From a virus (taxonomy: Duplodnaviria; Heunggongvirae; Uroviricota; Caudoviricetes): a stretch of 64,000 bases of DNA. This document shows, piece by piece, positions 6,186 to 37,262 of this stretch; positions within the stretch are counted from its first letter, which is position 1; the number at the start of each line of letters is the position of its first letter. The translations under genes and the position numbers were made by a program. The DNA lies in IMG/VR virus record IMGVR_UViG_3300011442_000002, positions 11,825 through 75,824 of that record, one strand, 5' to 3'. A model generated the notes under the pieces. That model searched no databases. It saw nothing but the letters and a program-made list of their open reading frames with translations, and had not been told where the DNA came from.

Positions 6186-6737
6186 TCAAATCTTCTGGTA
6201 AGTGCCAGCAGTAATACCCGGCAGAACACCCGTCGTCGCTGCATGTCCAGCATAAGGAGTCCGAAATGCTGCATTAAAGTCCGCAGTCGGCGCAGCCCCG
6301 GATGGCGTATCCGCTCCGGTATCAGTATACAGGACGGTCGGCGCAGTAATCGTATTCATCAACAGGAACGAACCACCGGTGCGTCCATAAATCTTATAAG
6401 ATGTCGCGCCAGCCACCGTCGCCACTGTCAACGCCACACTTGACGTCGCGCCACCAGCAACATACGAGTTAGATGCTGCACTTAACGCACTTTCCACGCC
6501 ATCTTTTACATACGTGTTCTTGTACGTATAAGTAGCAGCAGCTAGAGTACCACCAGAAGCCGATCCAACAGCAACGGGAGCAGCAGGCGCGTCACCTTGT
6601 CCACCTGTTAGAATAACGGCCATGGACTCGCCATTTGTCCGGCGGTAAATGACATTATCACCTCTAAAACCACGCTTTACGGCCATTTTCCCTCCATCGA
6701 CGTATTTAAATATGCCCATTAAGTATTTAGAACCCAC
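6186..6737 (-). CDS. hypothetical Ala/Gly/Thr-rich protein (possible structural)
   Basis: 183 aa ORF. Confidence 0.4.
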   Translation of the reverse strand: MGSKYLMGIFKYVDGGKMAVKRGFRGDNVIYRRTNGESMAVILTGGQGDAPAAPVAVGSASGGTLAAATYTYKNTYVKDGVESALSAASNSYVAGGATSSVALTVATVAGATSYKIYGRTGGSFLLMNTITAPTVLYTDTGADTPSGAAPTADFNAAFRTPYAGHAATTGVLPGITAGTYQKI

Positions 6738-6770
6738 AGGCAGGGAGGGTACCCGCCATCATAAGTTGAC

Positions 6771-7106
6771 TTATGACTTTAGGTAACCCTCAGCCTCATC
6801 GACCACTTTCTCATAAATGTCATCCCAAGCGTGCTTGCCACCAACATCTAGGCCGCGCTCGGCAGGACCCATTGTGCGTTCAACAATATACTTTGCGGCG
6901 TTAAACCGAATCATTTCTGTTGTTGAGTAGGTCGCAAGATGACAAATGGCCATGGTTGAAATGGGCAGAGCTTCTTCAAATAGCCGTTTTGCAGTAATCT
7001 GTGGCGTATCTGTTGACTCTAATGCCCGCTCCATAGTCAGGTTTCTCAGCGCCGTGGTCGGGTCCCACTCTGTTGGATCGATCGGCGGACGATCAGGATT
7101 GGTCAT
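6771..7106 (-). CDS. hypothetical protein (first gene of leftward late operon; possible small terminase)
   Basis: 111 aa, first ORF after the divergent control region. The size is compatible with TerS but there is no direct motif evidence. Confidence 0.3.
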   Translation of the reverse strand: MTNPDRPPIDPTEWDPTTALRNLTMERALESTDTPQITAKRLFEEALPISTMAICHLATYSTTEMIRFNAAKYIVERTMGPAERGLDVGGKHAWDDIYEKVVDEAEGYLKS

Positions 7107-7317
7107 TGGTTGTCACCCCCTCAAGAGACCTTAAAGCCAGAATACGTCAGTCAGAGCAGAATGTCCACCGTGACGGAAAATGAACACTTCAATTTTACTT
7201 CGCAAAATATTTGGACATTGTAATGTCAATTTTCTGACACTTAAAAACTTTCTTGATCTACGTGAAACGCTCCAAAATGTCCATTTTATACCTTTTATCT
7301 TAATATAGTTACTTTTG

Positions 7318-7760
7318 TTATATTATGCCCGATTTTTCCTCCCCCCAATATGGGGATATGTCCGAAATGTCCGATTTGCTCCACCCTGTCCGGATTTGTA
7401 CGGATGTGTGCCGATTTGTCCACATATAGGGGGGCCAAACGGGCATGTCCGATTTATCCACATTTAGCCGGCCTGTGACGTAAATCACAGTCGGAAATAT
7501 GGTGATATGTCCGATTTGGTAGGGGGGATATACCCCCTTTACCCCATATGTCCGATTTGTCAGAAAGGTCGTATATGGGGGGATATGCCCATTGTGCCCT
7601 GTTTTGCCCCGATTTAGCACGCCCGAAATGTCCGATTTATGCGGATTTATGCCCATATGGGGGACATTTTTTACCGGACATGTCCGATTTGTCATACTTT
7701 GTCCTATTTTAGGGGGGCGAAATTATCGGGACAAACCACCACAAAACGGACATTTCCACC
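7318..7760. promoter_or_regulatory. divergent control region: ORF-free array of ~10 ATGTCCGATTT(G) motifs that flips orientation near 7700-7745
   Basis: Top-strand copies of ATGTCCGATTTG (7358-7694) change to AAATCGGACAT (from 7744). A CGGACATGTCCG palindrome lies at about 7674. The region sits between the leftward late genes and the rightward early genes. Confidence 0.6.
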
Positions 7761-7952
7761 CAAACCCGGACATGCTATGCTTATAGTATAACTAAAGGCG
7801 CGGAACGGTAATATCGGACACTTCCGACAATCCGGGGAAACCAAGCCAAATCGGACATTGATAACTAAATAGTGACGAACCGGGCGAACCGGGCAAAACC
7901 CCCAAGTCTCCCCTATCCGGCATGTCCGACAAAATCGGACAAAGGAGACAAA

Positions 7953-8111
7953 ATGGTACAAAGACGGACAAAGTGGTGGGAATACTGCTCAAACTGCTCA
8001 AATCGGGTAGAAGCTCCCAAAACGGACAATCCGACCGAAACCATGCTAGAATGTAGGAATTGCGGCAAAACGGAGAAAGTGGACATAACCTCCCAAAGCC
8101 GCGCAGAGTAG
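7953..8111 (+). CDS. early small protein (CxxC...CxxC zinc ribbon)
   Basis: The start is reset to the ATG preceded by cATGTCCGACAAAATCGGACAAAGGAGACAAAATG. 52 aa, with CSNC...CRNC. Confidence 0.5.
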   Translation: MVQRRTKWWEYCSNCSNRVEAPKTDNPTETMLECRNCGKTEKVDITSQSRAE

Positions 8112-8218
8112 GACAAAGCGGACATGCCGGACAGAAGGGACTTGGGGGACAAAAAGGGAAAATCCGGATCTAAGAGGCTATGTCCGACAAATCAGAAAAA
8201 TCGGACATAGGAGACAAA

Positions 8219-8377
8219 ATGGAAGATTTCACCGGAATTGGGACTGAAACGGACAATTGGTACAAGTCGGACCAACACGACAATCTGCCCGAAGGGGACG
8301 TTTGCGACGAAGGGTGCGATTGGTGCCTAGGGGACGGATCGGAGATAATACTCATCCTGGACGAAACGGACATCTAG
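8219..8377 (+). CDS. early small acidic protein
   Basis: ATG preceded by ATGTCCGAC..CGGACATAGGAGACAAAATG. 52 aa. Confidence 0.5.
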   Translation: MEDFTGIGTETDNWYKSDQHDNLPEGDVCDEGCDWCLGDGSEIILILDETDI

Positions 8378-8486
8378 TCTAAAAGGCACAAAACGGACAT
8401 AGCCTCCTAAATCCGGATTTTCCTGGACTTACCACCTCTTACCGTACATGTCCGATAATTCGGGAAAATCGGACATAGGAGACAAA

Positions 8487-8696
8487 ATGGAAAAATTCGG
8501 GCGTATCGTCGCATATTACGACAATTCGGTCGGAGTGCCGCAAATCGGACTTTTCGTCGGATATGAGGCATATGGCACAAATTGGACATTCTACCCGAAT
8601 CAGTGCATAGCTGACGGAATGGACAAAAACGGCATAAGGTACCTAGAGGGCGATTTGGGATTTATCGGAGGAATTCCGGCAATCCTGGCAAACTAG
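8487..8696 (+). CDS. early small protein
   Basis: Same start-associated motif (ATGTCCGATAATTCGGGAAAATCGGACATAGGAGACAAAATG). 69 aa. Confidence 0.5.
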   Translation: MEKFGRIVAYYDNSVGVPQIGLFVGYEAYGTNWTFYPNQCIADGMDKNGIRYLEGDLGFIGGIPAILAN

Positions 8697-8786
8697 GACA
8701 AAACGGACATGTACGGCAAAAGGTGGTAAGTCAGGCTATCCGGGTATAAGCGCATATGTCCGACAAAACGGACATAAGGAGACAAA

Positions 8787-9059
8787 ATGCACATTTACGA
8801 CCTTAAGTGCGAAGAGACCAAAACGGACATCTCGGGCATAACAGTCAAAAGTGGGCAAAAGGTGGTAATCGTACGATTGCTGACAATTTCGTACACAGTG
8901 GACGTTAAGGACCTTCTGGACGATTGCGACGTAACGGAGATTTCGCTCAAACAGCTCATAACGGGCGAAGAGCGCGAAAACGACATTACGGTCAAAATGG
9001 AATATTGGGACGAAGCGGAAATTGGGGACGATCTAGTCATTTCGGCCGAAGTACTCTAA
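8787..9059 (+). CDS. early small acidic protein
   Basis: Preceded by ATGTCCGACAAAACGGACATAAGGAGACAAAATG. 90 aa. Confidence 0.55.
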   Translation: MHIYDLKCEETKTDISGITVKSGQKVVIVRLLTISYTVDVKDLLDDCDVTEISLKQLITGEERENDITVKMEYWDEAEIGDDLVISAEVL

Positions 9060-9129
9060 ACCACCCAAATCGGACATATGCGCCTATATCCGGATAGCTC
9101 CCGACGGGAGATATGTCCGTTTTGCCCGG

Positions 9130-9206
9130 TTTGTCGTTTTGTAATTACAAAGGTGTAATTTGTGCCTTGTGCCCGAATTGCACCATTGTAATTACAAAAC
9201 GACAAA
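9130..9206. repeat. 77-bp near-perfect palindrome (21-bp arms TTTGTCGTTTTGTAATTACAA, plus inner GGTGTAAT/ATTGCACC)
   Basis: The arms at 9130-9150 and 9186-9206 are exact reverse complements. The palindrome is flanked by CGGACAT motifs on both sides. Confidence 0.8.
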
Positions 9207-9436
9207 TCGGACATTACGGACATATACGACAAGTCGGAAAAAACGGATAAATCGGGCATTTCCGCCCATATGGTGGCGTATGCGTATGCAGTCCTAAATA
9301 ATTGGACATTTCCGTGCCGATCGGTGACTTTCGGACATTTTGGACAAAAACCACTATATGGGGGGAAAAAATGATTATCCGGATCTAACAGGCTATGTCT
9401 GGCCAAAAGGGACAAATCGGACAAGAGAGGCCAAAA

Positions 9437-9679
9437 ATGGACATTTGGGCTGAACTCTGGCCAATTCCCCACGTAAACGGCAAAACGCACAAATCGGTCG
9501 TAAGGTCGGTTTCCGCTCAAATTAGTGTCTTTGCGACAATCGAGGACATTTACCACAGAGTGGTCAAATCGGGCATTGCGGACGATGACGACGTTTTGGC
9601 GACTACTAGGGCAATTCGGACAGTTCGGGACAATATCCGTAAAACGGTCGAAGGCGGACGAAAGGAACTAACGGCATGA
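9437..9679 (+). CDS. early small protein
   Basis: ATG after a variant motif (ATGTCTGGCCAAAAGGGACAAATCGGACAAGAGAGGCCAAAAATG). 80 aa. Confidence 0.45.
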   Translation: MDIWAELWPIPHVNGKTHKSVVRSVSAQISVFATIEDIYHRVVKSGIADDDDVLATTRAIRTVRDNIRKTVEGGRKELTA

Positions 9680-9859
9680 AACAGACATTCAGGAAAATCC
9701 TGACAAACGGCGCAATCCTGGTGATTAGCTTCTTTATCGGGATATACCTGGGCACAAGGCACTAATGAGCTAAACCAGACATAGCCTGCTAAATCCGGAT
9801 AATCAGGATATACCAGCTCTAAACGCATATGTCCGGTAAAACGGACAAAGGAGACAAAA

Positions 9860-10156
9860 GTGTACGTACAGGATGAAAAGCAACGTAACGTCGGAAATCT
9901 GGACATTCCGGACGGATGGGCCGGAACGTACGATACCTCGCGAATGTGGACAATTATCCACGTAATGCCACAAATCGGGGCATTGGTGACATACCAGGAC
10001 CAAGCGTACCAAATCATCCGAACCGAGACACATCAGGAGGAAGACGTAAATCCGCGCATTACGACCTTTTGCGTCATTGTTCGCATTGACGACGAAGGGG
10101 ACCAATTGGACATAGAGTCCATAATGGTCAAAGCGGACGAACTGACTCTTATCTAG
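9860..10156 (+). CDS. early small protein
   Basis: GTG start after ATGTCCGGTAAAACGGACAAAGGAGACAAAAGTG. 98 aa. Confidence 0.45.
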   Translation: MYVQDEKQRNVGNLDIPDGWAGTYDTSRMWTIIHVMPQIGALVTYQDQAYQIIRTETHQEEDVNPRITTFCVIVRIDDEGDQLDIESIMVKADELTLI

Positions 10157-10254
10157 CAAAAAGGGTAAAACGGACATATGCGTCTAAAGCTGGTATATCA
10201 GGCTATACCCGTTCTAACTCTGCATGTCCGGACAAAACTGGACAAGGAGTACAA

Positions 10255-10518
10255 ATGTACGTAAACGTGGGTGCAAGGGACGTAAGCAACAATAAGGACA
10301 TTCCCACCAAATCGGACCTTAAGGGACGAATGGTGAATTACCCCCAAACCGTCGAATTGTACGTAACTGACGCATTTGGGCCAAATGCAGGCAAAGTGGT
10401 CATTGGCGACAATCTGGAGATTGGTGTCAAATACACCGTAACCGGACCAAACCCGTACACAAGCCGCAAATGGTATGCAACGGTCGAAAAGACTGTTAAG
10501 GGTATCAAAGTAAGCTAA
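10255..10518 (+). CDS. early small protein
   Basis: Preceded by ATGTCCGGACAAAACTGGACAAGGAGTACAAATG. 87 aa. Confidence 0.5.
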   Translation: MYVNVGARDVSNNKDIPTKSDLKGRMVNYPQTVELYVTDAFGPNAGKVVIGDNLEIGVKYTVTGPNPYTSRKWYATVEKTVKGIKVS

Positions 10519-10597
10519 CCCACACAAATCGGACATGCAGGGCTAAAACGGGTATATCCGGATTTAAGGTGACATGTCTCCACAAAAGGAGACAAAA

Positions 10598-10846
10598 ATG
10601 GGCATAAGTGTAGGAACCATCTTCAAGTGGTTGGATTCGGACAATCCAGACGATTCGGCTGAATCCTGCCTAGATGGGCAATGTGTGGGCAAAGTAACCG
10701 AAATCATAGAAAACCCGGACAATACGGACAAACCGTCTGTATCGGTCAAATGGTGGGAAATGTGTAAACTTCACCACGAAATCGATCCAAACGGGACAGG
10801 TCCGTACGATCTGAGTTATATCTGGCAAATCGGACAACTTTACTAA
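10598..10846 (+). CDS. early small protein
   Basis: ATG after ATGTCTCCACAAAAGGAGACAAAAATG. 82 aa. Confidence 0.45.
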   Translation: MGISVGTIFKWLDSDNPDDSAESCLDGQCVGKVTEIIENPDNTDKPSVSVKWWEMCKLHHEIDPNGTGPYDLSYIWQIGQLY

Positions 10847-11130
10847 AACACATCAAATGGGGACATGTCACCCTATATCCGGATATATTCGACTGTCAGG
10901 AACCCGACAGTACGAAATGTCCGGTTAGCACCATAAGTCGGTTTTGTGTGTGCTATACTGGAAGAGTGGCCCAAATCGGGCAAGAAAGCATCAAATCAGA
11001 CATTTTGGGGCATATGCATATGCAGTCCTCAAAAATTGGACAAACTGCAACCAGTCGGATATTGATAACTAAATACGGACATGTCTGGATATATGGGGGC
11101 GTGGCCTGATTTCTACACTTTGGAGACGAT

Positions 11131-11418
11131 ATGTGGGAATATGGCTACACTGATCCTTTTTCAGCCGAAAACGACACCATTGAAGTCTTTTGGGGCGAAG
11201 CATCCTCATTTGTGACGGCTTTGGGCGAATTGTGCGAGAATGTCGAGAAAATGCTCAATGATGCGGAACCGTACCAAATTTCCCATTATGAGCAGGTTCT
11301 CGCGGAAATTCGGACAATTCTCTCAGATCCAGCATATGCGGAAGATCCGGACCAATGGGAAGATATGGAGTTTACGGACGATATCGGAGAAATCGTATAT
11401 TACCTGATCGAACTGTAA
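11131..11418 (+). CDS. early small acidic protein
   Basis: 95 aa, with GGAGAC SD. Lies downstream of a TGCTATACT promoter-like module. Confidence 0.5.
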   Translation: MWEYGYTDPFSAENDTIEVFWGEASSFVTALGELCENVEKMLNDAEPYQISHYEQVLAEIRTILSDPAYAEDPDQWEDMEFTDDIGEIVYYLIEL

Positions 11419-11500
11419 AAATCGGACAGATCAGGCCATACCCCTTTATATCCAGATATGTCTAGCTTTAGACTGCCATGTCCTTAGAAATGAGGACAAA

Positions 11501-11770
11501 ATGGACTTAACGCCTAGTTCGTTCGAAATCAGGGAATACATGGAAAAACAGCCTGGTTTCGGAGAAATCGACTCAAACCTCCAACATGCTATCATTTCGG
11601 ACATTCGGCACAGAATGGCTGCAAGTGTAGAATATTGGCGCACATGGGGCGAATTCGTGCTAAACTACGTAAATTGGGTCAATGAGTACATTACCGCATT
11701 TTCCGTCACACCTGCGGGCATGTGGGAACAATGGGGCGTAATGCTCAGAGACCTCTATTTAGGTAGATAA
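11501..11770 (+). CDS. early small protein
   Basis: 89 aa. Preceded by ATGTCC...GGACAAAATG. Confidence 0.5.
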   Translation: MDLTPSSFEIREYMEKQPGFGEIDSNLQHAIISDIRHRMAASVEYWRTWGEFVLNYVNWVNEYITAFSVTPAGMWEQWGVMLRDLYLGR

Positions 11771-12056
11771 CCACAACAAACGGACATGGCAGGCTAAAAC
11801 TGGACATATCACCACAATAGCCACTGTCAGATACCTGACATGTAGAAATGTCCAATTGGCACTATAAATGCCGATCGGGTATGCTATACTTAGTGTAGGC
11901 GGGCGGAACTGCCAGCAAACCCCACAGGGCAGGACAAACCCGCAAAAATCGGACATTCTCACCTAAATATGGCTTTATTGCACCTTCAGGTAGAAAAAGT
12001 GCAGGATGGGACAAACCATCCCATCCTGTGCTTTCCCTACCTGAAAGGGGCCTAAG

Positions 12057-12650
12057 ATGGCAAACGAGAAGACTCCTATCACAAAGGTACAAAAAGGACG
12101 AAGGTGGGCAACCGCTACTTTGGTGCTTACCGGACTTTTCTCAATTTGGTTTAATGTCCGTTCTGGTAAGATTGCGGCAGAACCGATCCTTTTCTCCGCT
12201 ATGCCAGTTGTGGTACTGTTTCTCACGATTCACCTGATTAGTTACCTTAATCCCCGTAAGGGCATGCATAAGGTACTTGTCTACTTTGGATTGGGTATGG
12301 TGTCAATTGTCGCATTTGGGATGTCTGGCTTCCATTTGTACACGGAAGCGATCAAAAACGGACAAATCTGGATTATTGCGATAACCTACCCATTCATCGT
12401 AGATGTGCCAAGTGTGATTTCTGCGGTAATTTTGGTCGAAAAGGTGCCAGTCGCGCGAGCGGTGACACAACCGGCAAACCCGGCGAAAAAGACAGTTCCG
12501 GCAAAAAAGGCTAGTCCTACTAAGGCTACCGCAACCCCAACAAAACGGACATCTAGCCCGAAAGCGACAATTCCGGTAAAACCCGAAGTAACGTTCAGAA
12601 CGCCTGATATCCTGACAGATCCGTTGGAAAGGGAGTTTCTTAGCGCTTAG
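12057..12650 (+). CDS. integral membrane protein with C-terminal Lys/Pro/Thr-rich tail
   Basis: 197 aa with about 4 predicted TM helices, then PAKKTVPAKKASPTKATATPTKR. A roughly 170-nt structured leader lies upstream. Confidence 0.55.
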   Translation: MANEKTPITKVQKGRRWATATLVLTGLFSIWFNVRSGKIAAEPILFSAMPVVVLFLTIHLISYLNPRKGMHKVLVYFGLGMVSIVAFGMSGFHLYTEAIKNGQIWIIAITYPFIVDVPSVISAVILVEKVPVARAVTQPANPAKKTVPAKKASPTKATATPTKRTSSPKATIPVKPEVTFRTPDILTDPLEREFLSA

Positions 12651-13422
12651 GTGCATTTAGTGCGATTCTGGCATTTTGGACATTCCACTCAGAGTGTCAG
12701 AATCGTGCTATGTCCACCTAAACCAACTAAATCCAACTTAAAAGGGACAGATCATGCCAAAGAGTACGAAGTTGACGATTAGGCAAATTCGGGCATTTAA
12801 TAGCTTTTTGGACAAACTCCTCAAAGTTACCGAATCCGCTGACTTAGCACATCTGTACGAAAGTGCCAAGATCAGCGGTGCCCAAATCGGACAAACGGTA
12901 CTTAAGGGATAGGACGGACAATGCGGATCAAACCGTATGCAATTATCTCAATAATCGTAATAGCCGTATATGCATCCATAGCTGTCCTTTCCAGGATCTA
13001 GCTCGCATTACGGTCAGATCGCCCATTTCCGCACATTAGGCGCGATCCGTCGGATATGGTCCTAAAAAGCCCATATCCGCACGGTCCGGGGCCTAAACCG
13101 GACATTTACACCTCAAATACCACAGAAAGGTACAAAAATGTTCAACACTGACACTTCGGTTGATGAGCACCTAGAAGCGGCGTATGAGGCGCAATCGGAC
13201 AGTTCGTACGAACCGTACGGATACGGGTCAGACTACGCGGACCCGGACGATTACGACGATTACGACGAAGAGGACGATTCAGACGAAGAGGACGAAGACG
13301 ACATCTAGTACCAACCCCACCATTTAGGCAGATTTGGTGTGAGATAGGTCTAGTCCACCTATCTCATGCCATGTCCACCTAAATCGGCACAAAACTACCA
13401 AAACCGGAGAGGATCGGACAAA

Positions 13423-13611
13423 GTGACACGAAAACACTATATCCTTCTAGCTCGGACAATTAGGGCTCAGATGGAGAAATACGACTATCCGGACGATACG
13501 CGCGAACTGGACGCAATCCGGGCATTAGTCAACGAACTGTGCATAACGCTCAAAGCGGACAATCAAGACTTTGACCGCGAAAAGTTCCAAAAAGCTACAA
13601 TTCACTTCTAA
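13423..13611 (+). CDS. early small protein
   Basis: GTG start after GGAGAGGATCGGACAAAGTG, in frame with listed ORF 13366. Confidence 0.4.
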   Translation: MTRKHYILLARTIRAQMEKYDYPDDTRELDAIRALVNELCITLKADNQDFDREKFQKATIHF

Positions 13612-13839
13612 CAACCACATATTCCCCAAAAGGGACGATCATGGTCGTATTGGTACATATGTACCAATACGTGCCATGGGCGCCTCTAATTTCCAAAATG
13701 CCTATACCTAGGCAGAGACACCCAAAAGGCACCAAACCCGCTCAGCGTGGCCCACAACGGGCGAACGGCACCAACCACGCTGAGCGGACCAATGCCCACC
13801 AACCAAGATCAACAGACCACCTAGCAGAAAACGGACAAA

Positions 13840-14076
13840 ATGGACATTTCCCCACACAATCCGCCAATGCCAGTTACCACCAAAAAAGCCACAAAGAGGA
13901 AGAAGTACCCGAAAGGCGGGTCAATGCGGGCACCTAACGCAATCGCCGCGATTTACTCGGATAACACATATGCCGTGATCGCGGACGAAGCTACCGAAAG
14001 GCGGCTAAGTGCGTACGGACCGCCTACAGACACCCGAAAGGCTGGATACAACTTCATTTGGGGCGAAGTGAACTAA
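13840..14076 (+). CDS. early small basic protein
   Basis: 78 aa. Preceded by AAACGGACAAAATG. Confidence 0.45.
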   Translation: MDISPHNPPMPVTTKKATKRKKYPKGGSMRAPNAIAAIYSDNTYAVIADEATERRLSAYGPPTDTRKAGYNFIWGEVN

Positions 14077-14782
14077 TCGGACATGTCCGGACATGAGGAC
14101 CCAATCTCCACCAAATCCCTCATGTCCGGACAATCCGACCTATATTTAACCATACCACCTGTATTCCTCAAGAATTGGGGCAATCCGCCTCCATTCGGTC
14201 ATTCGCTTACCTATCGGACCCAAATATGTATACCGGGGATACCTCTTTCTATCACTCGCTGAGTGGGGGTCGTGGTCACGTGGAATCCCACCAAATCGGA
14301 CATACCGCCAATAGCAGCGTGTTTGCCACGAGTCACCACACAGTCAGCATCTTCACTACTCTACTACTCCTATTTTTTCCTTGTTTCATTTAAGCAATGA
14401 CTACATACTTAATACAAACGTCTGTTCGAATCAAAACGGACAAAACAATATATCTACGGAAGTTAATGGTATACCTTATCTCTCGCACACACCGGCAATT
14501 TGGACATTTTCATGCCACTGTCTTGTTCTAGAACAGACGTTCCAATGCCTTATCTAGGTAGAGCGCTTCAGGACTCGTAAAAATTTGGATATTACGACTC
14601 AACATCACAAATGTCCGAATTTTTTGCTATAGTGTGGACCTTAATCGCTAAACGTAGATAAGGGATTGGCCCGGTAGAGATCAACTTTGTCTCAATCGTG
14701 ACCAGTGCTAACATAGGTAGCTAGCCGCGCCAATGACATAAAACGGTCAACACGTAGCAACTACCCACATACGGAGCGTAAC

Positions 14783-15715
14783 ATGCCAGTATGGCCTAAT
14801 AACCGCGCAATAATAATTTCACACCCAATTTACGGCAAAGGCCTCGAACCTGAACGTTTAGGACACATGTCGACGGAACTCTGCCAATGGCTCAAGTATA
14901 AGCTTGATGAACAAACCGCAATAGATGCTGACGAAACGGACGCATTAGGATTTAAGCAATTTTTCACACAACCAACCATTAACGCATTTACCACCCGTAG
15001 CCTGATTTCTGCGATCAGAGGTTACTCACCTAGCCTATGCTACGAAAACGGACGTTTAACCAACCGTGGCATAGAAACGGCAAAAATAGCAAGAGCCATA
15101 ATTATGGACAAAGAGAACCTAGGAGCGCACGATATCCTAGACTTGACAAAGATTACCAGAACGGAAGATTTGTTCATAACCGGCGAAGTCACAATAAGAC
15201 AGGCCGCACTACTCAAAATGATTTATAACGCCGTACTCGACGCAGAAGCGAACGATAGGCGCGAATTGGACAAAGAGTACCAAGCACTCTTACAAGGCAA
15301 TAACCAGCAACGGAACGAAATTACCCAAACACAGCAAATGGCGCTTTTAGCCAAAAATAACCAAGATAGTACGAATGGCACAGACTACACAAACAGCAGA
15401 GAAAGCGCAAAAGATACAACAGAGATCGAAGGTGATTTAACGGACATTTTTCGCGTAAGTGAACGAACCAACGAAACTCAGCCATTACAGGCCATAACCT
15501 TTAATTTGGGTGCTGGCCAGCGTCGGCAGGGTTATGTTCCAACAGCGATTTTTGTCCAAAAAACTCGTAATGACCTAAGAAACCTAGTAAAGTACGGTTT
15601 GGTCGATTTACGGGCACATGTCCAAGGTGTCCGTGGTCGACCGAAGCACGTGGTACGCGCCAGTCCAACCGGAGTGATCATGGTGGCCGACCTGGTTCGC
15701 CAGGACGTGATCTAA
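14783..15715 (+). CDS. hypothetical protein (Gln-rich central region; basic C-terminus RGRPKHVVR)
   Basis: 310 aa ORF downstream of a roughly 700-bp noncoding region containing palindromes. Confidence 0.5.
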   Translation: MPVWPNNRAIIISHPIYGKGLEPERLGHMSTELCQWLKYKLDEQTAIDADETDALGFKQFFTQPTINAFTTRSLISAIRGYSPSLCYENGRLTNRGIETAKIARAIIMDKENLGAHDILDLTKITRTEDLFITGEVTIRQAALLKMIYNAVLDAEANDRRELDKEYQALLQGNNQQRNEITQTQQMALLAKNNQDSTNGTDYTNSRESAKDTTEIEGDLTDIFRVSERTNETQPLQAITFNLGAGQRRQGYVPTAIFVQKTRNDLRNLVKYGLVDLRAHVQGVRGRPKHVVRASPTGVIMVADLVRQDVI

Positions 15716-16853: not shown

Positions 16854-16975
16854 GCTTGCGTTAAGGACGTGACAAAGTTCACACTATACCTAAAATCTAC
16901 GATTTTAGGGGACTTAACGCCCAAATGTACAAAAAGGCATTAAAAGCACATTAAACAGTAATAACCTAACAAAAA

Positions 16976-17017
16976 GGACAAAGGACAAAGGACAAAGGAC
17001 AAAGGACAAAGGACAAA
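16976..17017 (+). repeat. (GGACAAA)x6 tandem repeat abutting a start codon
   Basis: Six perfect 7-bp units end 2 nt before the ATG at 17020. Each unit contains an AAGGA SD-like core. Confidence 0.8.
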
Positions 17018-17637: not shown

Positions 17638-17879
17638 TGCAAGAAATTCCAAGTCTGGCACAAATACTTTACATGGTGGCCCTACTAGGATCTCTAGGAA
17701 CTCTGATTGCTGTTGGGATTCTAGTAGGACACTTTCGCAAGCACTTAGATTGACTGAAAATAATTAGTGGTTTTGCTCGGTACTCGACGTGCTAATGCAA
17801 CTCATTGCTAACGATAGGTCGAGTACCGTGTTATTCAACTAACTATATTAACCCAAGCAATACCACAGTTAGGAGAAGA

Positions 17880-26017: not shown

Positions 26018-26089
26018 GGACGCATAGCTCAGTGGAAGAGCATCGCTCTTACAAAGCGAGGGTCATAGGTTCAAATCCTATTGTGTCTA
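26018..26089 (+). tRNA. tRNA-Val (TAC)
   Basis: Hand-folded cloverleaf. D-arm GCTCAGTGGAAGAGC, anticodon stem TCGCT/AGCGA with loop CTTACAA, T-arm ATAGGTTCAAATCCTAT. Confidence 0.55.
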
Positions 26090-26324
26090 CAACAAATAGT
26101 GTTAGATCATTGACACTCAAAAAGTAATGATAAAAAATTTTTGGTGAAACCCCGGTAATTGATGTCGTTTAGGACTTAGTTATCGGGTTGCTGACCAAAA
26201 ATTGCGACGATAGCAACTAAAGGTTCCATTTTGAAGCCGCTGCCGCCCAGTAGACAATGATCTACTCCGTAGGTGATGGAAGAAGAGTTGCACTTATTAT
26301 CCTCCGAGCATTGGAGGTGACAAA

Positions 26325-26699
26325 ATGGGTACAAAAGCAAATTACGAAACAATGAACTATGCAGCCCGACGCGAGAGAATGGATAAATCGCGCCGTGCTG
26401 GACAACTTAACCGAATATATCGACGTGATGGTGGTATCTGTCAACTCTGCCACAGACCATGTAGTAGAGCCGATGCATCCCGCGATCATATCAAAGACTT
26501 TGCACTGTGTACTCCAGAAGAAGCAAAAGATGATGACAACATGGTACTTGCACACAAAGAGTGTAACAACAACAAGCATCACAAACCTGGACACAGTGTA
26601 GATGTTCGCGATAGAAATTCACACCTAAGCTTCACAATTCAAGAAGCATTTCCAGATTTTAAGTGGAATATAACAGATTTGCCTTCTGAGTCGGATTGA
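26325..26699 (+). CDS. HNH endonuclease (free-standing, homing-type)
   Basis: CQLCH...DHI...H..CNNNKH motif set. A sigma70-like promoter lies upstream and a terminator hairpin downstream. Confidence 0.65.
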   Translation: MGTKANYETMNYAARRERMDKSRRAGQLNRIYRRDGGICQLCHRPCSRADASRDHIKDFALCTPEEAKDDDNMVLAHKECNNNKHHKPGHSVDVRDRNSHLSFTIQEAFPDFKWNITDLPSESD

Positions 26700-26758
26700 A
26701 TCGATTATCTAATTACGAGTTCGAATCTCGTTATTGGTACCCGAAAGGTTTGCCAATA
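26688..26758 (+). ncRNA. modular structured RNA element, family copy 1 (GAGTCGGA...GATTATCT + T-arm-like hairpin)
   Basis: Shares the core with elements at 26910, 27146, 27226, 28896, 31057 and 31652. Overlaps the last codons of the HNH gene. Confidence 0.35.
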
Positions 26759-26850
26759 GCACGACGCATGGTAGCGTCAGCACGCGGCAACTAGTGTTTG
26801 TAGCGTGTTAGAAACAACGGTCGATTCTAAAACATATTCAGAAGCTAGTT

Positions 26851-26883
26851 CTACAGTAGTGTTCCGGCACTACTGTAGTTTTC
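26851..26883 (+). terminator. Rho-independent terminator
   Basis: 11-bp perfect stem CTACAGTAGTG/CACTACTGTAG followed by TTTTC. Confidence 0.6.
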
Positions 26884-26909
26884 ATTGTCAGACTTAGGGC
26901 TGACTTTAA

Positions 26910-26975
26910 ACACGGGTCGAACGTTAACGGTTATCTGGCAGAGAATCTTCCGTTAACAATAACATATCCGTGTCC
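26910..26975 (+). ncRNA. modular structured RNA element, family copy 2
   Basis: GGGTCGAACGTTAACGGTTATCTGG...CCGTTAAC, enclosed by ACACGG/CCGTGT. Confidence 0.4.
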
Positions 26976-27145
26976 TTAAGCTTGTTAGTGGATGCGACGC
27001 AATTCCGTTATTGGGTGTCGTAAGCGTACAGTGGAGGACAAGGTACGCATAATACAGTGTGCTAGTTGAGTCGACAGTAACGTCTACATTGTGAACAGTC
27101 GATAGTTATGCTTGTAGAGACTTAGCACACTTCTTAACTTAGCTT

Positions 27146-27190
27146 GGGTCGAAAGTAGTCGGTTATCTAACATATTGCTTCCCGACTACA
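27146..27190 (+). ncRNA. modular structured RNA element, family copy 3
   Basis: GGGTCGAAAGTAGTCGGTTATCTAAC...CCGACTAC. The stem covaries relative to the other copies. Confidence 0.4.
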
Positions 27191-27225
27191 CGCACATACT
27201 ATATCTAAGCGCTGAATTAAAGTTC

Positions 27226-27285
27226 GGGTCGAACGTTGATTGGTTAGCCTATTAAGCCGCTGGTTCCGGGTTCGAATCCTAGCAG
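27226..27285 (+). ncRNA. modular structured RNA element, family copy 4 (with GGGTTCGAATCC T-loop-like segment)
   Basis: GGGTCGAACGTTGATTGGTTAGCC...GGGTTCGAATCCTAG. Confidence 0.3.
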
Positions 27286-27361
27286 AGATTTAGTTATCTC
27301 TGTAGCTCAATTGGTAGAGCAGCGAAAACCCCGATCAACATACACACATCCGAACTATCCC

Positions 27362-27434
27362 ACCCACATAGCTCACCGGATAGAGCATCACACTACGAAT
27401 GTGAGGGTTGTAGGTTCAATTCCTACTGTGGGTA
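27362..27434 (+). tRNA. tRNA-Arg (ACG)
   Basis: Acceptor ACCCACA/TGTGGGT, anticodon loop CTACGAA, T-arm GTAGGTTCAATTCCTAC. Confidence 0.6.
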
Positions 27435-27590
27435 CGCAAGGAAATCGTGTCCGGCCGACATAGAAGGAATCGTGCATCGCCGATATTAATATGAAGGATG
27501 CACAAATTTTTCCAAATAGATGGCTTCGCGTCACTAGATGGAAAGTCAGTGAAGCCACCGGCACTGAATAAACTCTACCGGTGGCGCCTT

Positions 27591-27665
27591 GTGTCTTAAG
27601 TGTAATGGTTTGCACGAGAGCTTCCAAACCTCTTTGAGTGGGTTCGATTCCTACAAGACGCGCCA
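27591..27665 (+). tRNA. tRNA-Trp (CCA), CCA 3' end encoded
   Basis: Acceptor GTGTCTT/AAGACGC, anticodon loop TTCCAAA, T-arm GTGGGTTCGATTCCTAC. Followed by GCCA. Confidence 0.45.
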
Positions 27666-27723
27666 CAATTAAAAACACGGGACAAAGACATTACTCCAGA
27701 AAACAACTAAGTTCAGGAGTATG

Positions 27724-28885
27724 GATGAGTCAAGTAAAAAGAAGTACAAAGCTGGCGTTATCAGTAGTTCTCGCGTCAGTTCTAATCGCAATCGGATTTG
27801 CAGCTAGTGCTAGTGCTGCTCCATCTGGTTTGCAAGCAAGATTACAACTAGCAGAGGATAACCTGGCAAATTGCCAGTTATTGGCTTCTAATGCGACAGG
27901 TAACCAACTAACTAGAGCACAAAATTGTGTAGCAGATAACCAAGCGATCATTAACCTGATCAATGCTCAGTTAAATCCTACACCTGTACCAAGCACTAGT
28001 AGTACGTCACCTGCGCCTAGTGTGACGGTAACAACACCGGCACCTAGTACAACAACTCCAAGTCCTAGTCCTACTGTTACAACGCCGACACCTACACCAA
28101 GTCCCACAGGGCCGTCTACTACTCTGAAGAATTGCTTTAATTATCTTCACCAGTGTGGATATCCCGACCATGGCGATACCGGTGTACCAGTTGGCACAGT
28201 CTTAACTACGTATACTGGACCGGAAACGATTACCGTAGCTGGCACAGTTATCAATGGCAAGTCCATGAAATGTGTCAACATCAAGGCAGCAAATGTAGTG
28301 ATCCGCAATTCTAAGATCACTGGACCATGCTTCTACGGTGTTGAAATGATTAGTGGTTCTTTGCTTATTGAGTACAGCGAAGTAACCTGTGTTGATGGCA
28401 CTGGTACAGGCATTGCAGATGATGGCTTTACTGCAAGTCATGTATATGTTCATGATTGTGAGAATGGCTTTAGCTTAGGTAGCAACAATATAGTTCGCGA
28501 TTCTTATATTTCGGCTCGCGAAGCTACCTCAGCAGGTCATGGCGATGGTATTCAATCGGTTTCAGCAACAAACGTAACTATTCAGCACAACACGTTTGAC
28601 CTGTTTAACCCGGTAACATCGTCCATTATCATGGACAACCTGACGATGAAGAATCTTTTAGTTCGAGATAACTTCGTTTCGTCTGGTGCACTTACAATTT
28701 ATTGTCCAGAAGCTACTTCAAGCAACGTACAATACATTAACAACCGGTTCTATGGCCCAGTCGGTAACACAAGTATTGATCCACGACGACCGGCTTATGG
28801 TTATACTGATGGTTGCAACGTTGCGGCATTTATTTGGGTAGGAAACTACCGTGACTATGATTTAGGTGTAGTTAACAAGAGTTAA
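27724..28885 (+). CDS. secreted protein: signal peptide + Thr/Pro/Ser-rich linker + right-handed beta-helix (pectate-lyase-like) domain
   Basis: Start reset to MSQVKRSTKLALSVVLASVLIAIGFAASASA (signal peptide), then PTPVPSTSSTSPAPSVTVTTPAPSTTTPSPSPTVTTPTPTPSPTGPST, then NxxI/V-rich beta-helix repeats. Confidence 0.5.
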
Positions 28886-28895
28886 ACGTTGATAT

Positions 28896-28960
28896 GGGTC
28901 GGATGTTGTCGGTTATCTAACTATTATTAGAAGGTATGGGTTCGACTCCCATTGTGAAGC
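28896..28960 (+). ncRNA. modular structured RNA element, family copy 5 (with T-arm hairpin ATGGGTTCGACTCCCAT)
   Basis: GGGTCGGATGTTGTCGGTTATCTAAC immediately after the stop of the secreted-protein gene. Confidence 0.4.
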
Positions 28961-29139
28961 TGTGGAGCAATAAAAACCCGATAACGAAAATTTATCCATA
29001 TCTCATAAGCTGCACCGGGCGCCTTGGCTGGTATACCAATCCCCGTGTGCGTAATTGCTCACACTGGTTACTATGGTGGAGATCACAGGCTTGAAACCAT
29101 ATAGCTCCTAGGAAGCTAGTAATCCAGTGTGGGCATCAT

Positions 29140-29212
29140 GCCGCTTTATCCTAATGGACTAAGGAACCACTCTTCCAAAGTGGGTACGCGGGTTCGATTC
29201 CCGCAAGCGGTT
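29140..29212 (+). tRNA. tRNA-Gly (TCC)
   Basis: Acceptor GCCGCTT/AAGCGGT, anticodon loop CTTCCAA, T-arm GCGGGTTCGATTCCCGC, discriminator T. Confidence 0.6.
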
Positions 29213-29302
29213 CGCCTTTTTACTGCGAAGTTATGGCTAGTTGGTAAGTGTGTTCCAAATCTCCAAAAGGGTTTTGGGTCAGATCAAACACTTACCAACG
29301 AT

Positions 29303-29385
29303 AGAAGATTGCCAGAGTGGCTTATTGGGTTGGTTTGCTAAACCAATGAGGGTAACCTCCACAGGTTCGAATCCTGTATCTTCTG
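29303..29385 (+). tRNA. tRNA-Ser (GCT)
   Basis: Type II. Anticodon loop TTGCTAA, variable hairpin GAGGGTAACCTC, T-arm ACAGGTTCGAATCCTGT. Confidence 0.6.
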
Positions 29386-29684
29386 CGTCCAGTTTACCAG
29401 TTCTGTAACTTAGGGTTTGTAAAGACTGGTCGTCCAATCTGTTTTGGCACAGTAATTGTGGTCAGACGCCTAAATGACGTACAATATCGGTGTCGCAGAC
29501 AAGTTTCTTTGCTGGTTTCTTTAACTGTGGTTAGTCAATAAAGAAACCAGCACCCAAACGAGGTTGTAAGTATACGATAACCGTGAGGTATTCGTACGGC
29601 GTGCGCACACTAAAATTCCCTTATGCAGCTAGGTGCAGCCCAGGGGTAAAGATAAGCCGTTCCTAGCAGACTTACAACTTCTTT

Positions 29685-29765
29685 GCCGACATGGCGGAAT
29701 GGCAGACGCGCTAGATTTAGGTTCTAGTATCTTCGGATGTGCGAGTTCAAGTCTCGCTGTCGGTA
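29685..29765 (+). tRNA. tRNA-Leu (TAG)
   Basis: Type II. Anticodon loop TTTAGGT, variable hairpin ATCTTCGGAT, T-arm GCGAGTTCAAGTCTCGC, discriminator A. Confidence 0.6.
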
Positions 29766-29963
29766 CATGAAAAGATGGTTTAATAAGCAGTTTCCATACA
29801 TGCGACGTTGTGAAAAGAAGTGGTGCTTTAAGGGCCAAACCTATGGTGGACATTGTTATTTACATGCATCAAGTTGGTATGGTGTATAGACGAGGGTGCC
29901 ACGTATAAGAGAGTTTACCTCTCCTGGATTTCTAGACCAGATATGTGAAGGTGGCACCTTTGG

Positions 29964-30039
29964 CATTCTATAGCTCAACAGGCAGAGCGGCTGGCTGAAT
30001 TATGGCCGGCGGATTCAGGTTCGAGTCCTGATAGGATGG
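29964..30039 (+). tRNA. tRNA-like (possible Phe GAA; imperfect anticodon stem)
   Basis: Acceptor CATTCTA/TAGGATG, D-arm GCTCAACAGGCAGAGC, T-arm TCAGGTTCGAGTCCTGA. The anticodon arm pairs poorly. Confidence 0.3.
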
Positions 30040-30299
30040 CATTACGACATGGTGATTCCCAGTAGTCTGACTCTGAGGGGTGATCAGATTACTGCAAAAT
30101 ATGTCGTCTTATGCGAATATCACCGAGACGCATAAGGGTGTAGAAGAAGCGACCAAATTGGCGAGGGCTTCCATGTTGGCTAGGGATGAGGCTAACCTTA
30201 AATAAAAGAATAATCCATATTGAAGCGAAAGCAGACCATTTACCGTTAATTGTTACTTGTTTCTACTGTGTCTGTTTTCGCCCGCGAAAAAGGATTGGT

Positions 30300-31040
30300 A
30301 TGAACAGGAATCGATTAGTCGCGACCTTGCTGTCGGGCTTAATCACGATAGGAATTTTGGGTCTTCCGACTCATGCATTTGCAGCGCAAAGCCCACAGGC
30401 AGCAGCGCCAGTAAGTAGCATAACGGAAGTAGCCAATCTTTCAACTAGTGTAGAGAATAAGACAGTAGCTAGCGATACGTCGGTAACTGTTACCCCGTAT
30501 CCTTCGCCTTATGGCAGTCTTTCTGGTATTTCACAGGCTTTCTATGGCGACATTAGTCACTGGCCGGGCCTATGCTCATCCAATGGCATCGCGAATTGTG
30601 ACCTTCTTTATGTTGGTCAGTCAATTAGAGTTCCTACTACTGCACCTGTGGGTCCGGCCCCTGCACCGGCGCCCGCTCAGGCACCAGCAAACAATTCTAG
30701 TAGAGCACAGAGAATTGTAAACTATGCTCTAGCGCAGGTTGGCAAACCTTATGTTTGGGCAGCGGCTGGTCCATATGCCTTTGACTGTTCAGGTTTGGTA
30801 ATGCGTGCACTAGAGCAGGTTGGTGTATATGTTCCACACCAGGATCAATCAATTCTGTATTCTGGTCAAGGCTATGCAGTATCGCGTGACAATCTTCAGC
30901 CAGGTGACATCGTTTGGCCGTACAACGGCCATGTCTTTGTTTACATTGGCAATGGTAAGATTGTAGAGGCAGCCAACCCGGCTCAAGGTGTGATTGTTAA
31001 CAACCTTTACTCGTTTATGGCTGCTCGCCGGTACGTATAA
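30300..31040 (+). CDS. secreted LysM + NlpC/P60 peptidoglycan endopeptidase
   Basis: Signal peptide MNRNRLVATLLSGLITIGILGLPTHAFAAQ. LysM (GISQAFYGDISHW...LLYVGQSIRVP). NlpC/P60 (FDCSGLV...H). Start reset from the listed 30186. Confidence 0.6.
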   Translation: MNRNRLVATLLSGLITIGILGLPTHAFAAQSPQAAAPVSSITEVANLSTSVENKTVASDTSVTVTPYPSPYGSLSGISQAFYGDISHWPGLCSSNGIANCDLLYVGQSIRVPTTAPVGPAPAPAPAQAPANNSSRAQRIVNYALAQVGKPYVWAAAGPYAFDCSGLVMRALEQVGVYVPHQDQSILYSGQGYAVSRDNLQPGDIVWPYNGHVFVYIGNGKIVEAANPAQGVIVNNLYSFMAARRYV

Positions 31041-31056
31041 ATTAATAGGCTTGGAT

Positions 31057-31099
31057 GGGTCGGATCTTATCGGTTACCAATCATATAAACCCGATAAGC
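31057..31099 (+). ncRNA. modular structured RNA element, family copy 6
   Basis: GGGTCGGATCTTATCGGTTACCAATC...CCGATAAG, directly after the stop of the NlpC/P60 gene. Confidence 0.4.
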
Positions 31100-31120
31100 A
31101 AATAAAATACCTATCCAACT

Positions 31121-31205
31121 GGAGAGTTAGCCTAGTGGCCTAAGGCGCCAGTCCTGAAAACTGGAGAAGGTAACACTTCCGTGGGTTCGAATCCTACACT
31201 CTCTG
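31121..31205 (+). tRNA. tRNA-Ser (TGA)
   Basis: Type II. D-arm GCCTAGTGGCCTAAGGC, anticodon loop CCTGAAA, T-arm GTGGGTTCGAATCCTAC, discriminator G. Confidence 0.6.
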
Positions 31206-31236
31206 CGCAAGGTCCCTACTATAGGGAGGAAAATGG

Positions 31237-31632
31237 ATGGCAGATGTTAATATAAGCCTGGATTTCTCAGGATTGCCACCCACCGTAAGTGCTGTCCATG
31301 TGCACATTGAATATGCACACGGGTTAGAAGCGAAAATCGACGCGATTGGAGTACAAGTGTCAGAGCTTGACGACGCCGTAGCTGCTGTAAATGCGCAGAC
31401 TTCGGAGATTCTCGTTAACACTAACGAGCTAGTTAAGGATGTTACTCGACTCATTGAGCAGGGTGACACTTCCGCCGCGCTAGCTGAGCTACAGACGATT
31501 TCTACTAACCTAGAGACAGCTAACGCTGCACTCGTAACGACAGACCAGGCAGTAGAAGTAGCTTCTCCGGAAACTCCTGCTACGCCAGAACCAACCCCAG
31601 TAGTAGCGCCATCGGTAATCGACGAGCTGTAA
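31237..31632 (+). CDS. hypothetical coiled-coil protein
   Basis: 131 aa. Confidence 0.45.
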   Translation: MADVNISLDFSGLPPTVSAVHVHIEYAHGLEAKIDAIGVQVSELDDAVAAVNAQTSEILVNTNELVKDVTRLIEQGDTSAALAELQTISTNLETANAALVTTDQAVEVASPETPATPEPTPVVAPSVIDEL

Positions 31633-31651
31633 AATCAAAGCTTAGCTGTTG

Positions 31652-31740
31652 GGTCGAAGTTAATTGTTTATCTCAGATAGTTTAAAGGGTAAAACAATCC
31701 TCATTGAGGGTTAATGTCGGTTCGAATCCGACTCTGAAAT
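31652..31740 (+). ncRNA. modular structured RNA element, family copy 7 + T-arm hairpin (GTCGGTTCGAATCCGAC); candidate Y-RNA-like ncRNA next to the Ro60 gene
   Basis: GGGTCGAAGTTAATTGTTTATCTCAG with stem ATTGTTT/AAACAAT, then CCTCATTGAGGG, then a T-arm. Confidence 0.4.
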
Positions 31741-31776
31741 TCGTAACGATTACAACACATATCCAATAGTCCTTTG

Positions 31777-31871
31777 GGGACACATGGGTCCACTAGTATA
31801 TTTCTGATCAACTAGTGAGCGTGGGCATGATCAGACCTACGATGATAGGGTTCGAGTCCCTATGTCTCCAC
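31777..31871 (+). ncRNA. tRNA-like ncRNA (acceptor-like stem + T-arm, extra internal hairpin); candidate YrlA-type tRNA-like domain
   Basis: GGGGACA...TGTCTCC acceptor-like pairing. T-arm TAGGGTTCGAGTCCCTA. Internal CACTAGT...ACTAGTG hairpin. No canonical anticodon arm. Confidence 0.35.
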
Positions 31872-32107
31872 ATGAAAGTGCAAAATGATGCAAAAACACT
31901 AATACAAGCACTTGATCTTTTACACGAAGATTTACCTTGTGAAGGTAACATCGAAAAAGAATTTTGTAGTAGATGTATTCATCTTAGGCCAACTTTGGTT
32001 GCATACGTTGAGTCATTGCCACAATGGCAGCTTGGTTTGGTAGTACTTATAATAATTCTAAAATCTCTATACACAATCGTAATATATCCCTTTAGGAGGG
32101 GTCGACT

Positions 32108-33706: not shown

Positions 33707-33912
33707 TGTCAACATTAATTGATGCAGATGAAGAAGTAGTTGTAACTGATGCATATGGAAATAAGGCAAATGTAAGCTACGAAGACGCACTAGATATTGC
33801 TCAATGGTATGAGCTTGACAAGCATGACAAGCTTCATCCAATGACAATAGCAACCATAGTAGCTGCATTGATTACATGTGTATTTTCGCTGTCTGTGGCA
33901 ATTTTGCTATAA
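33706..33912 (+). CDS. small protein with C-terminal TM helix
   Basis: 68 aa. Coupled to the Ro60 stop. Confidence 0.4.
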   Translation: MSTLIDADEEVVVTDAYGNKANVSYEDALDIAQWYELDKHDKLHPMTIATIVAALITCVFSLSVAILL

Positions 33913-34200: not shown

Positions 34201-34201
34201 C

Positions 34202-34414: not shown

Positions 34415-34418
34415 GAAT

Positions 34419-37254: not shown

Positions 37255-37262
37255 TTGAATAT

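Follow-up and report, generated by a model that had tools for sequence, protein, structure and literature searches.

In the L5-type cluster A mycobacteriophages, asymmetric sites co-oriented with transcription silence elongation; these stoperators, the sites of the L5 gp71-type repressor, are 11-13 bp long, occur in tens of copies at and downstream of promoters, and follow the direction of transcription on both arms (PMC9283540). In phage P2, a divergent promoter switch contains at least six short 9-bp Cox boxes, 10-11 bp apart, which nucleate a directional filament; the orientation of the boxes has been proposed to set the growth direction of this DNA-wrapping winged-helix filament (PMC3936717). 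The cluster K phages carry the start-associated sequence (SAS), an asymmetric repeat including the Shine-Dalgarno (SD) sequence that stands in one orientation upstream of many start codons and in about half of the cases has an upstream inverted repeat (extended SAS, ESAS) at a variable spacer; its function is unknown (PMC3203893). Regulation in uncultured phages is almost unexplored. Here we describe a short oriented motif, W1, in a 64,000-nt stretch of DNA from an uncultured phage of the Caudoviricetes (positions 11,825 to 75,824 of the IMG/VR record IMGVR_UViG_3300011442_000002; hereafter the window), which belongs to a widespread lineage. The window has a leftward operon with genes for the large terminase (TerL), portal and protease, the first gene of which starts at 7106, and, in the rightward direction, small early open reading frames (ORFs) followed by 22 tRNA genes, a Ro60 homolog and the replisome. 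W1 forms an array between these two transcription units and continues through the early genes.

In phage phi29, divergent early and late promoters are controlled by p4 and p6 from the intervening DNA, and a small abundant protein coats kilobases from nucleation sites and represses the early promoters. The p6 signal differs from W1, being a periodic bendability at 12/24 bp with no defined motif, neither strand-oriented nor laid over synonymous sites. Iterons, such as the lambda O sites and the P1/F Rep sites, are direct repeats in one orientation beside DnaA boxes and an AT-rich block, and their inverted copies act as operators.

A phased, oriented motif through the early module

W1 is the 11-nt unit AAATCGGACAT (AAA(T/A)CGGACAT, with the core GGAC), which on the plus strand of the array reads ATGTCCGATTT. 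The window has 41 copies of ATGTCCGATTT with at most one mismatch, where shuffled sequence leads one to expect 1.15 and never yields more than 5. An earlier note on this DNA was thus right that such repeats exist here, with about ten copies in the array. That note had limited the motif to some 440 bp; about 30 more copies extend to position 14303. They make up the immediate-early motif field (7743-14303, plus strand), which runs through some 15-20 small ORFs and the intergenic cassettes, nearly all copies being in the rightward sense. Between 7.7 and 15 kb the core GGAC occurs 120-127 times on the sense strand as opposed to 24 times on the antisense strand; its sense-strand density is 11-28 per kb over 8-15 kb, as against some 3 per kb on the opposite strand and in other regions, and a weaker enrichment persists to about 20 kb.

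The cores are also in phase. Among the 88 GGAC pairs lying within 40 nt, 81 are separated by 9-10, 18-20, 27-30 or 36-39 nt; for cores placed at random the number averages 28.6 and never exceeds 49. The ladder of spacings is still visible past 100 nt. In 1-kb windows over 8-14 kb the Fourier power of GG and AAA is 13-36 at 9.3-9.7 nt, against 3-9 elsewhere.

This signal is embedded in the genes themselves, GGAC being equally dense in coding and non-coding early sequence (about 17 per kb each). The early ORFs contain 68 GGAC, compared with 30.2 ± 4.7 under codon permutation and 32.6 ± 4.1 under synonymous shuffling (shuffle maximum 44), and 40 in-phase pairs versus 3.7-6.5 under both shuffles. 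A periodicity of the amino acids is not behind this, since the reading frame differs between neighbouring GGAC sites. Moreover, identical residues are encoded by different codons in 21-33% of cases in the early genes, 41-57% in TerL and 51-72% in the late gene late1 (6771-7106) of the same phage pairs; the low rate of codon differences in the early genes indicates that their synonymous sites are under extra constraint.

The motif is shared by related phages. IMG/VR holds 59 contigs with a related terminase, 11 of which (TerL 73-87% identical) have W1, and it is also borne by L069, a more distant member in which the neighbouring late gene is 58% identical. These 11 loci and L069, at least 12 uncultured phage genomes, are the relatives considered here. 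The array and the promoter-like boxes recur in all of them; in the 11 related loci the arrays stand at the same position, with 5-14 copies each and lengths of 0.5-2 kb. The field and its phasing likewise recur in the 11 loci and in L069, and its orientation in all close relatives; the field occupies 6-8 kb and stops sharply on its distal side. The early proteins among these relatives are 30-58% identical or absent, and this one short oriented motif is far better conserved than they are. The kilobase-scale phased field inside the early ORFs is the main feature, and the array is only its promoter-side tip. A phased code of this scale over ORFs, with synonymous constraint, appears to be undescribed among phage regulatory systems, to our knowledge, and a literature search with the motif string returned nothing relevant.

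The more distant phage L027 (TerL 57% identical) has at 1170-1600 an ORF-free, pure tandem array of about 450 nt, made of some 35 ten-nt units CCG(G/A)TTTnnn in early orientation, with a Fourier power of 31 at 10.0 nt; its units have the AAAYCGG half in common with W1. In no other distant relative did a different motif turn up that co-varies with a protein, and in L027 the unit is a related one but the early proteins are not shared.

A perfect tandem heptamer, (AAAGGAC) x 6.4, lies at 16973-17017 (plus strand; Tandem Repeats Finder (TRF) score 90), with the GGAC core at a 7-nt period. The start codon of a probable membrane protein of 70 aa (ATG at 17020) follows directly, and the heptamers read as a series of SD-like AAGGA units.

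The array and the promoter-like elements around it

The array (7325-7690) is free of genuine ORFs and is oriented toward the late operon, on the minus strand. In plus-strand coordinates, exact copies of W1 lie at 7367-7377, 7445-7455, 7507-7517, 7548-7558, 7628-7638 and 7680-7690, a one-mismatch copy at 7325-7335, and degenerate copies at 7358-7368, about 7386-7397 and about 7408-7418. Spacing within the array is irregular and ranges over 9-80 bp, not the 20-60 bp that had been reported. The orientation does invert as claimed, at the palindrome CGGACATGTCCG (7675-7686), and from 7743 rightward the plus-strand unit is AAA(T/A)CGGACAT; in either direction of transcription the sense strand therefore carries the same reading of the motif, leftward in the array and rightward in the early region. 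The earlier note placed the switch at the gene boundary, but it is internal to the divergent non-coding region (7107-7952), some 100 bp before the early -10 element. The 125-aa ORF at 7318-7695 (minus strand) is spurious, as had been suspected. Its weak matches are translations of the repeats and it has no conserved counterpart in nine related arrays, where the longest ORFs lie on differing strands and frames.

Rightward of the array, conservation points to a putative early promoter with an extended -10 element, TGc-TATGCT (7773-7781, plus strand), of which the TAnnnT hexamer is kept in seven of seven aligned relatives and TGn in six. Two W1 units in early orientation (7743-7753 and 7763-7773, plus strand) lie upstream of or overlap this element, and W1 precedes the early -10 at spacers of 3, 14, 22-23, 31-32 and 42. 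A conserved leader of about 165 nt (7790-7952, plus strand), with W1 units at 7811, 7848 and 7932, leads to the first early gene. Within this leader an outer stem of GUCUCC (7906-7911) and GGAGAC (7943-7948, the SD) encloses an inner hairpin, UGUCCGA/UCGGACA (7923-7941). The gene itself (7953-8111, plus strand) encodes a 52-aa protein with a CxxC...CxxC zinc ribbon, to which the Pfam zinc-ribbon matches are weak (E 0.004-0.3); its product was not found in the relatives by tblastn.

On the late side, the invariant box AACTATATTA (7301-7310, minus strand) is, from its conservation and position, a putative -10-only late promoter with the hexamer TATATT (7307 to 7302). It is exact in 11 loci, the window counted, and in L069, and is present in L027 too; in the window it lies within a block of 65-75% AT (7180-7339). 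The only other exact copy in the window (17841-17850, plus strand) lies 30 nt upstream of an SD and follows a terminator-like hairpin (17777-17830). We suggest that AACTATATTA may mark a class of -10-only phage promoters. A W1-like unit, AAAATGGACAT (7277-7287, minus strand), stands at a fixed distance downstream of the late box, and GGACA is found 18-20 nt downstream of this box in 9 of the 11 loci. Upstream of it, W1 occurs at spacers of 8-9, 16-18, 27, 37 and 45-46; three residue classes modulo 10 take in 15 of the 25 spacers. The W1 ladders at the two promoters, which differ in phase by about half a turn, suggest placement by face of the helix. In the leftward direction the late box comes after the array. 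This puts the array upstream of the putative late promoter, and unless a second promoter exists, it is not the long motif-laden 5' leader of the structural operon that had been proposed. The late-operon leader has, as read from the sequence, an inverted repeat TGTCA-N6-TGACA (7224-7239). It belongs to a GTGTYAG-N4-6-CTRACAC family with one to six copies between the late box and the late SD in every relative, which could be a set of operators or RNA hairpins for late-gene control.

Inside the array, a TGTGA-N6-TCACA palindrome with half-sites of CRP/FNR type (7474-7489) is unique in the window, where 0.11 matches are expected. It is present in seven of nine relatives, in one to three copies per array and with a free spacer sequence, and also in L069. 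Palindromes of ATAT flanked by G/C, here called W2 boxes, alternate with W1 at 7341-7355, 7522-7537 and 7577-7590. As the site lies between divergent, conserved early and late promoter-like elements and holds this conserved CRP-type palindrome, the description of it as a bidirectional regulatory hub is a fair one.

A proposed polar binding track and its alternatives

We favour, with a probability of roughly 40%, the reading that W1 is an asymmetric DNA site for a regulator that polymerises head-to-tail, silencing early and activating late transcription in an early-to-late switch. A sequence-specific protein would bind W1 head-to-tail, about once per helical turn. The array at 7325-7690 would be the inter-promoter control region, where W1 shares the orientation and the helical phase of the late box on one side and of the early -10 on the other, and W1 units of lower affinity and high density would cover the whole immediate-early module. 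As the protein accumulated, its polar coating or wrapping of the early module would block both initiation and elongation, and on the upstream array it would activate the late promoter, which has no -35 element. The TGTGA-N6-TCACA palindrome may bring in the input of a second, dimeric factor.

In this model we infer a polymerising protein ligand that acts on duplex DNA, and the sign of its effect at each promoter. Action at the DNA level is supported by the presence of W1 in DNA that is not transcribed from the conserved promoters, where it is phased to both promoter elements, by its occurrence on either side of the putative starts at both elements, and by the palindrome in the same array, a classic dimer-type site; stoperators (PMC9283540) and the directional Cox filament (PMC3936717) are published parallels. 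W1 is conserved and the early proteins are not, which makes a host factor, or else a conserved middle, late or virion protein of the phage, the expected ligand.

Several points weigh against this reading. Searches of about 55 ORFs with Pfam, PHROG and NCBIfam gave no DNA-binding protein for W1 (no repressor, sigma factor or Cox/Xis-like protein); the small early proteins match no Cox/Xis family, and PDB sequence searches were empty. The product of 14783-15715, p310, has only five homologs, and its AlphaFold model is unusable (predicted local distance difference test score (pLDDT) 38.7). The period of 9.3-9.7 nt is shorter than the helical repeat of 10.5 bp, so that binding on one face would require the DNA to be wrapped or overwound, and inside the array itself the periodicity is weak (Fourier power at most 11). 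The early and late promoters are themselves assigned from conservation. Finally, a signal in RNA would account more simply for strand specificity over 7 kb, and the SD-proximal W1 hairpins (at least seven) and one compensatory variant point to RNA.

The known systems resemble this locus in part. Like stoperators, W1 is asymmetric and its orientation follows transcription, in the leftward array as in the rightward early region. However, stoperators number about 20-30 per genome and are dispersed genome-wide in short intergenic gaps, whereas W1 has 11-28 cores per kb, phased at 9.5 nt, equally in coding and non-coding DNA within a 6-8 kb block, besides a dense array between promoters; stoperator systems also encode an immunity repressor with a monomeric helix-turn-helix and a stoperator domain, and the approximately 55 ORFs scanned in the window gave no repressor-like match. 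The array shares with the Cox boxes and the lambda Xis microfilament its place at a divergent promoter switch, between the putative promoters at 7773-7781 and 7301-7310. Cox targets cover about 70 bp at 10-11 bp, whereas the arrays here are 370-2000 bp long and irregular (9-80 bp) and the phased field spans kilobases at 9.3-9.7 nt. Those systems use a small winged-helix protein, and no Cox/Xis-like protein was detected among the ORFs scanned here. As in the SAS/ESAS repeats, W1 abuts the SD and has an upstream inverted repeat in at least seven early genes, but SAS is found only at gene starts, 11-19 times per genome, with no non-coding array, no copies in ORFs and no phasing, all three of which W1 has.

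If the polar binding track is true, it offers a directly testable model for the silencing of early genes as a block and the activation of late ones. It would also be a clear instance of synonymous sites being selected for an overlapping signal in DNA or RNA, and the W1 arrays would be a sequence handle for fishing out the regulator. Such a code can distort gene calling and analyses of nonsynonymous to synonymous change (dN/dS) in phage early regions. A broader idea, which we put forward tentatively, is that the immediate-early module carries a second, non-protein code, in which the oriented AAAnCGGACAt, set every 9.5 nt or so for 6-8 kb and kept through synonymous sites, would be a track on which a protein loads to coat or wrap the DNA or the transcript. 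Such a protein could be delivered by the virion or be a host factor, and the track could shield or meter the first DNA expressed, or silence the module as a block, with the array as nucleation site.

Most early genes share an upstream order of stop codon, W1, about 17 nt, a TATATC-like box, inverted W1, loop, W1 and AGGAGACAAA-ATG. The cassette at 8390-8486 (plus strand) is an example, and similar ones lie at 8115-8218, 8700-8786, 9772-9859, 10167-10254 and 10526-10597. This layout would also suit promoters, with the CGGACA of W1 as a -35-like element and TATATC as the -10, so that each small early gene would have its own promoter and the array would be a series of tandem promoters toward the late operon; as an explanation of the whole we think it rather unlikely. 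The combination CGGACA-N16-18-TATAT(C/G) occurs eight times, against about 0.1 expected by our estimate, at 7451 (-), 7554 (-), 9332 (+), 9835 (-), 10171 (+), 10530 (+), 11423 (+) and 13415 (+); in several cassettes it comes after the stop codon and ahead of the leader hairpin and SD, and five of nine array units have a TATAT box at 16-18 nt, as judged from the letters. Promoters carried by intergenic repeats are known from halovirus HF2 (PMC8707807). A sigma-70-type system would place a -10 at 16-18 nt from each -35-like unit, but only eight of about 73 CGGACA units have such a partner, one of them antisense (9835). Many W1 units lie inside ORFs or abut the SD, where they are unfit for a promoter, and the spacing from W1 to the conserved early -10 varies from 3 to 42 nt. 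TATATC lacks the canonical final T, even though a canonical TTGACA-17-TATACT is used as well (15943). The 9.5-nt phasing and the synonymous constraint are left unexplained. The promoter cassette explains a real subset of the W1 units.

The same cassettes could act in RNA, a possibility to which we give the same low weight. W1 in the early mRNAs would then be a site for a translational repressor or an endoribonuclease, combined with a stabilising 5' hairpin, and the array would be transcribed as a leader or decoy RNA with about ten sites. The motif is nearly confined to the sense strand, and almost all antisense copies are hairpin partners: in at least seven early genes an inverted and a direct W1, the latter directly 5' of AGGAGACAAA-ATG, form a hairpin of 7-10 bp immediately before the SD, with loops of 5-13 nt (up to 24 nt in the relatives), in a layout like that of the cluster K SAS/ESAS repeats (PMC3203893). 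The cassette at 10560-10597 has the compensatory variant ATGTCTCC/GGAGACA, and the conserved nested stem of the first gene sequesters the SD. Transcription of the array could be driven by a weak leftward promoter match, TTGTCC-17-TAAAAT (7734 to 7706). On the other hand, W1 lies upstream of both conserved promoter elements, phased to them and beyond transcription from the known promoters. With the invariant motif as both arms, the leader hairpins show almost no covariation, and the comparison is uninformative. On either strand the array folds to the same degree (z about -3), as is the case for DNA palindromes; in the window, Rfam 15 covariance models matched tRNAs alone at the gathering score, with no match for the array. 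No RNA-binding protein candidate was found besides Ro60, which has no known link to such a signal.

The earlier note had also raised an origin-like region, which is a weak proposal. In that case W1 would be bound by a phage initiator as its iteron, with an AT-rich unwinding element and DnaA boxes of the host on the flanks, and the inverted pairs elsewhere would be operators for the same protein; we consider this improbable. The direct repeats stand in one orientation, DnaA-box-like 9-mers abut W1 at 7416-7424 (TTGTCCACA) and 7454-7462 (TTATCCACA), both on the plus strand and with similar boxes in several relatives, the 65-75% AT block at 7180-7339 is adjacent, and the cumulative GC skew has its minimum near 7 kb. 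The occurrence of W1 as both direct and inverted copies recalls iteron plasmids. Iterons, however, are 17-22 bp long, regularly spaced, few and confined to the origin, whereas W1 is 11 nt long, irregular in the array (9-80 bp), and spread over 6-8 kb of early genes, and it also precedes genes far from the array, at 41288 and, upstream of a Sak4-like gene, at 50997 and 51096. No initiator gene adjoins the array, the replication genes being 38-50 kb away; the GC skew here tracks the direction of transcription; and with 22 DnaA-like boxes in the whole window their enrichment in the array is modest.

A role in packaging or DNA entry seems about as improbable. The array would be a cosB/pac-like site upstream of the packaging operon, and the field would mark the end of the genome packaged last and ejected first and would give a motor, an ejection protein or a protective coat its track. 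The first gene of the TerL and portal operon comes immediately after the array, the orientation diverges from one point as if the genome ended there, with the early genes reading inward, and the field is a sharply bounded block of 6-8 kb. Against this, W1 precedes internal genes too, the circular assembly of a close relative has the array intact and gives no evidence of ends there, and no small terminase was identified: late1 has a model of pLDDT 64.6, with no Foldseek match below E=2 and no PDB profile match.

That W1 is non-functional repetitive DNA, 9-11-nt tandem units made by slippage and decaying in place, is scarcely credible, for although array length and copy number vary widely among relatives and L027 has a pure 10-nt tandem array, the core, the orientation rule, the phasing and the boxes are kept across phages whose TerL differ by up to 27% and late1 by up to 42%, and the signal persists inside ORFs against codon expectation with reduced synonymous change.

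Other candidates were weighed in the light of the strand and composition data and were set aside. Chi-like sites would be on the wrong strand for a G-rich Chi and leave the phasing unexplained; for T7-type primase sites the strand is wrong for outward-moving forks; the region is G-rich, not C-rich as in Rho rut sites; and the flanking bases misfit CsrA sites. The peptidoglycan hydrolases and strong SD sequences of the phage speak against an archaeal TATA/initiator reading of W1.

Two long non-coding gaps of the early module, 9060-9436 and 10847-11130 (280-380 nt), contain palindromes TGTAATTACAAA, repeats of gcatatgcatatgcagtcct and W1 units. In the first of them, a hairpin of W1 and inverted W1 followed by TTTT (9067-9123) looks like a terminator.

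The phage, its host and other features of the window

The region 6500-9500 has no DNA match to isolated phages, and the proteins are less than 35% identical to those of known phages. In metagenomes, 51 homologs of the neighbouring gene were found. A close relative, L001 and L063 (IMGVR_UViG_3300020020_000001), is a contig of 80,170 nt with identical 127-bp ends, so that the genome is about 80.0 kb and closes as a circle, some 16 kb of which the window lacks. With 22 tRNAs and its own replisome the phage looks lytic, and neither an integrase nor a repressor homolog was seen among the phage ORFs scanned. The peptidoglycan hydrolases and strong SD sequences indicate a bacterial host; the sole lead to its identity, a TerL fragment 61% identical in a metagenome-assembled genome of SAR202 (Chloroflexota), is too weak for use.

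The cluster of 22 tRNA genes (26018-42264) encloses the Ro60 homolog (32108-33706), which has TROVE and vWA domains (Pfam E 3e-61); Rfam made no call of a Y RNA at the gathering score. The middle region also encodes an NlpC/P60 RipC-like peptidoglycan hydrolase (30186-31040, plus strand; E 1e-27) and a Fic-domain protein (41587-42096, plus strand; NCBIfam E 4.5e-7). Two small, extremely acidic proteins are encoded at 13138-13308 (plus strand; 56 aa, C-terminus ...DPDDYDDYDEEDDSDEEDEDDI) and 50721-50990 (plus strand), and in both genes TRF flags GAC/GAA repeats of 9-27 nt. These proteins may be DNA mimics or anti-restriction proteins.

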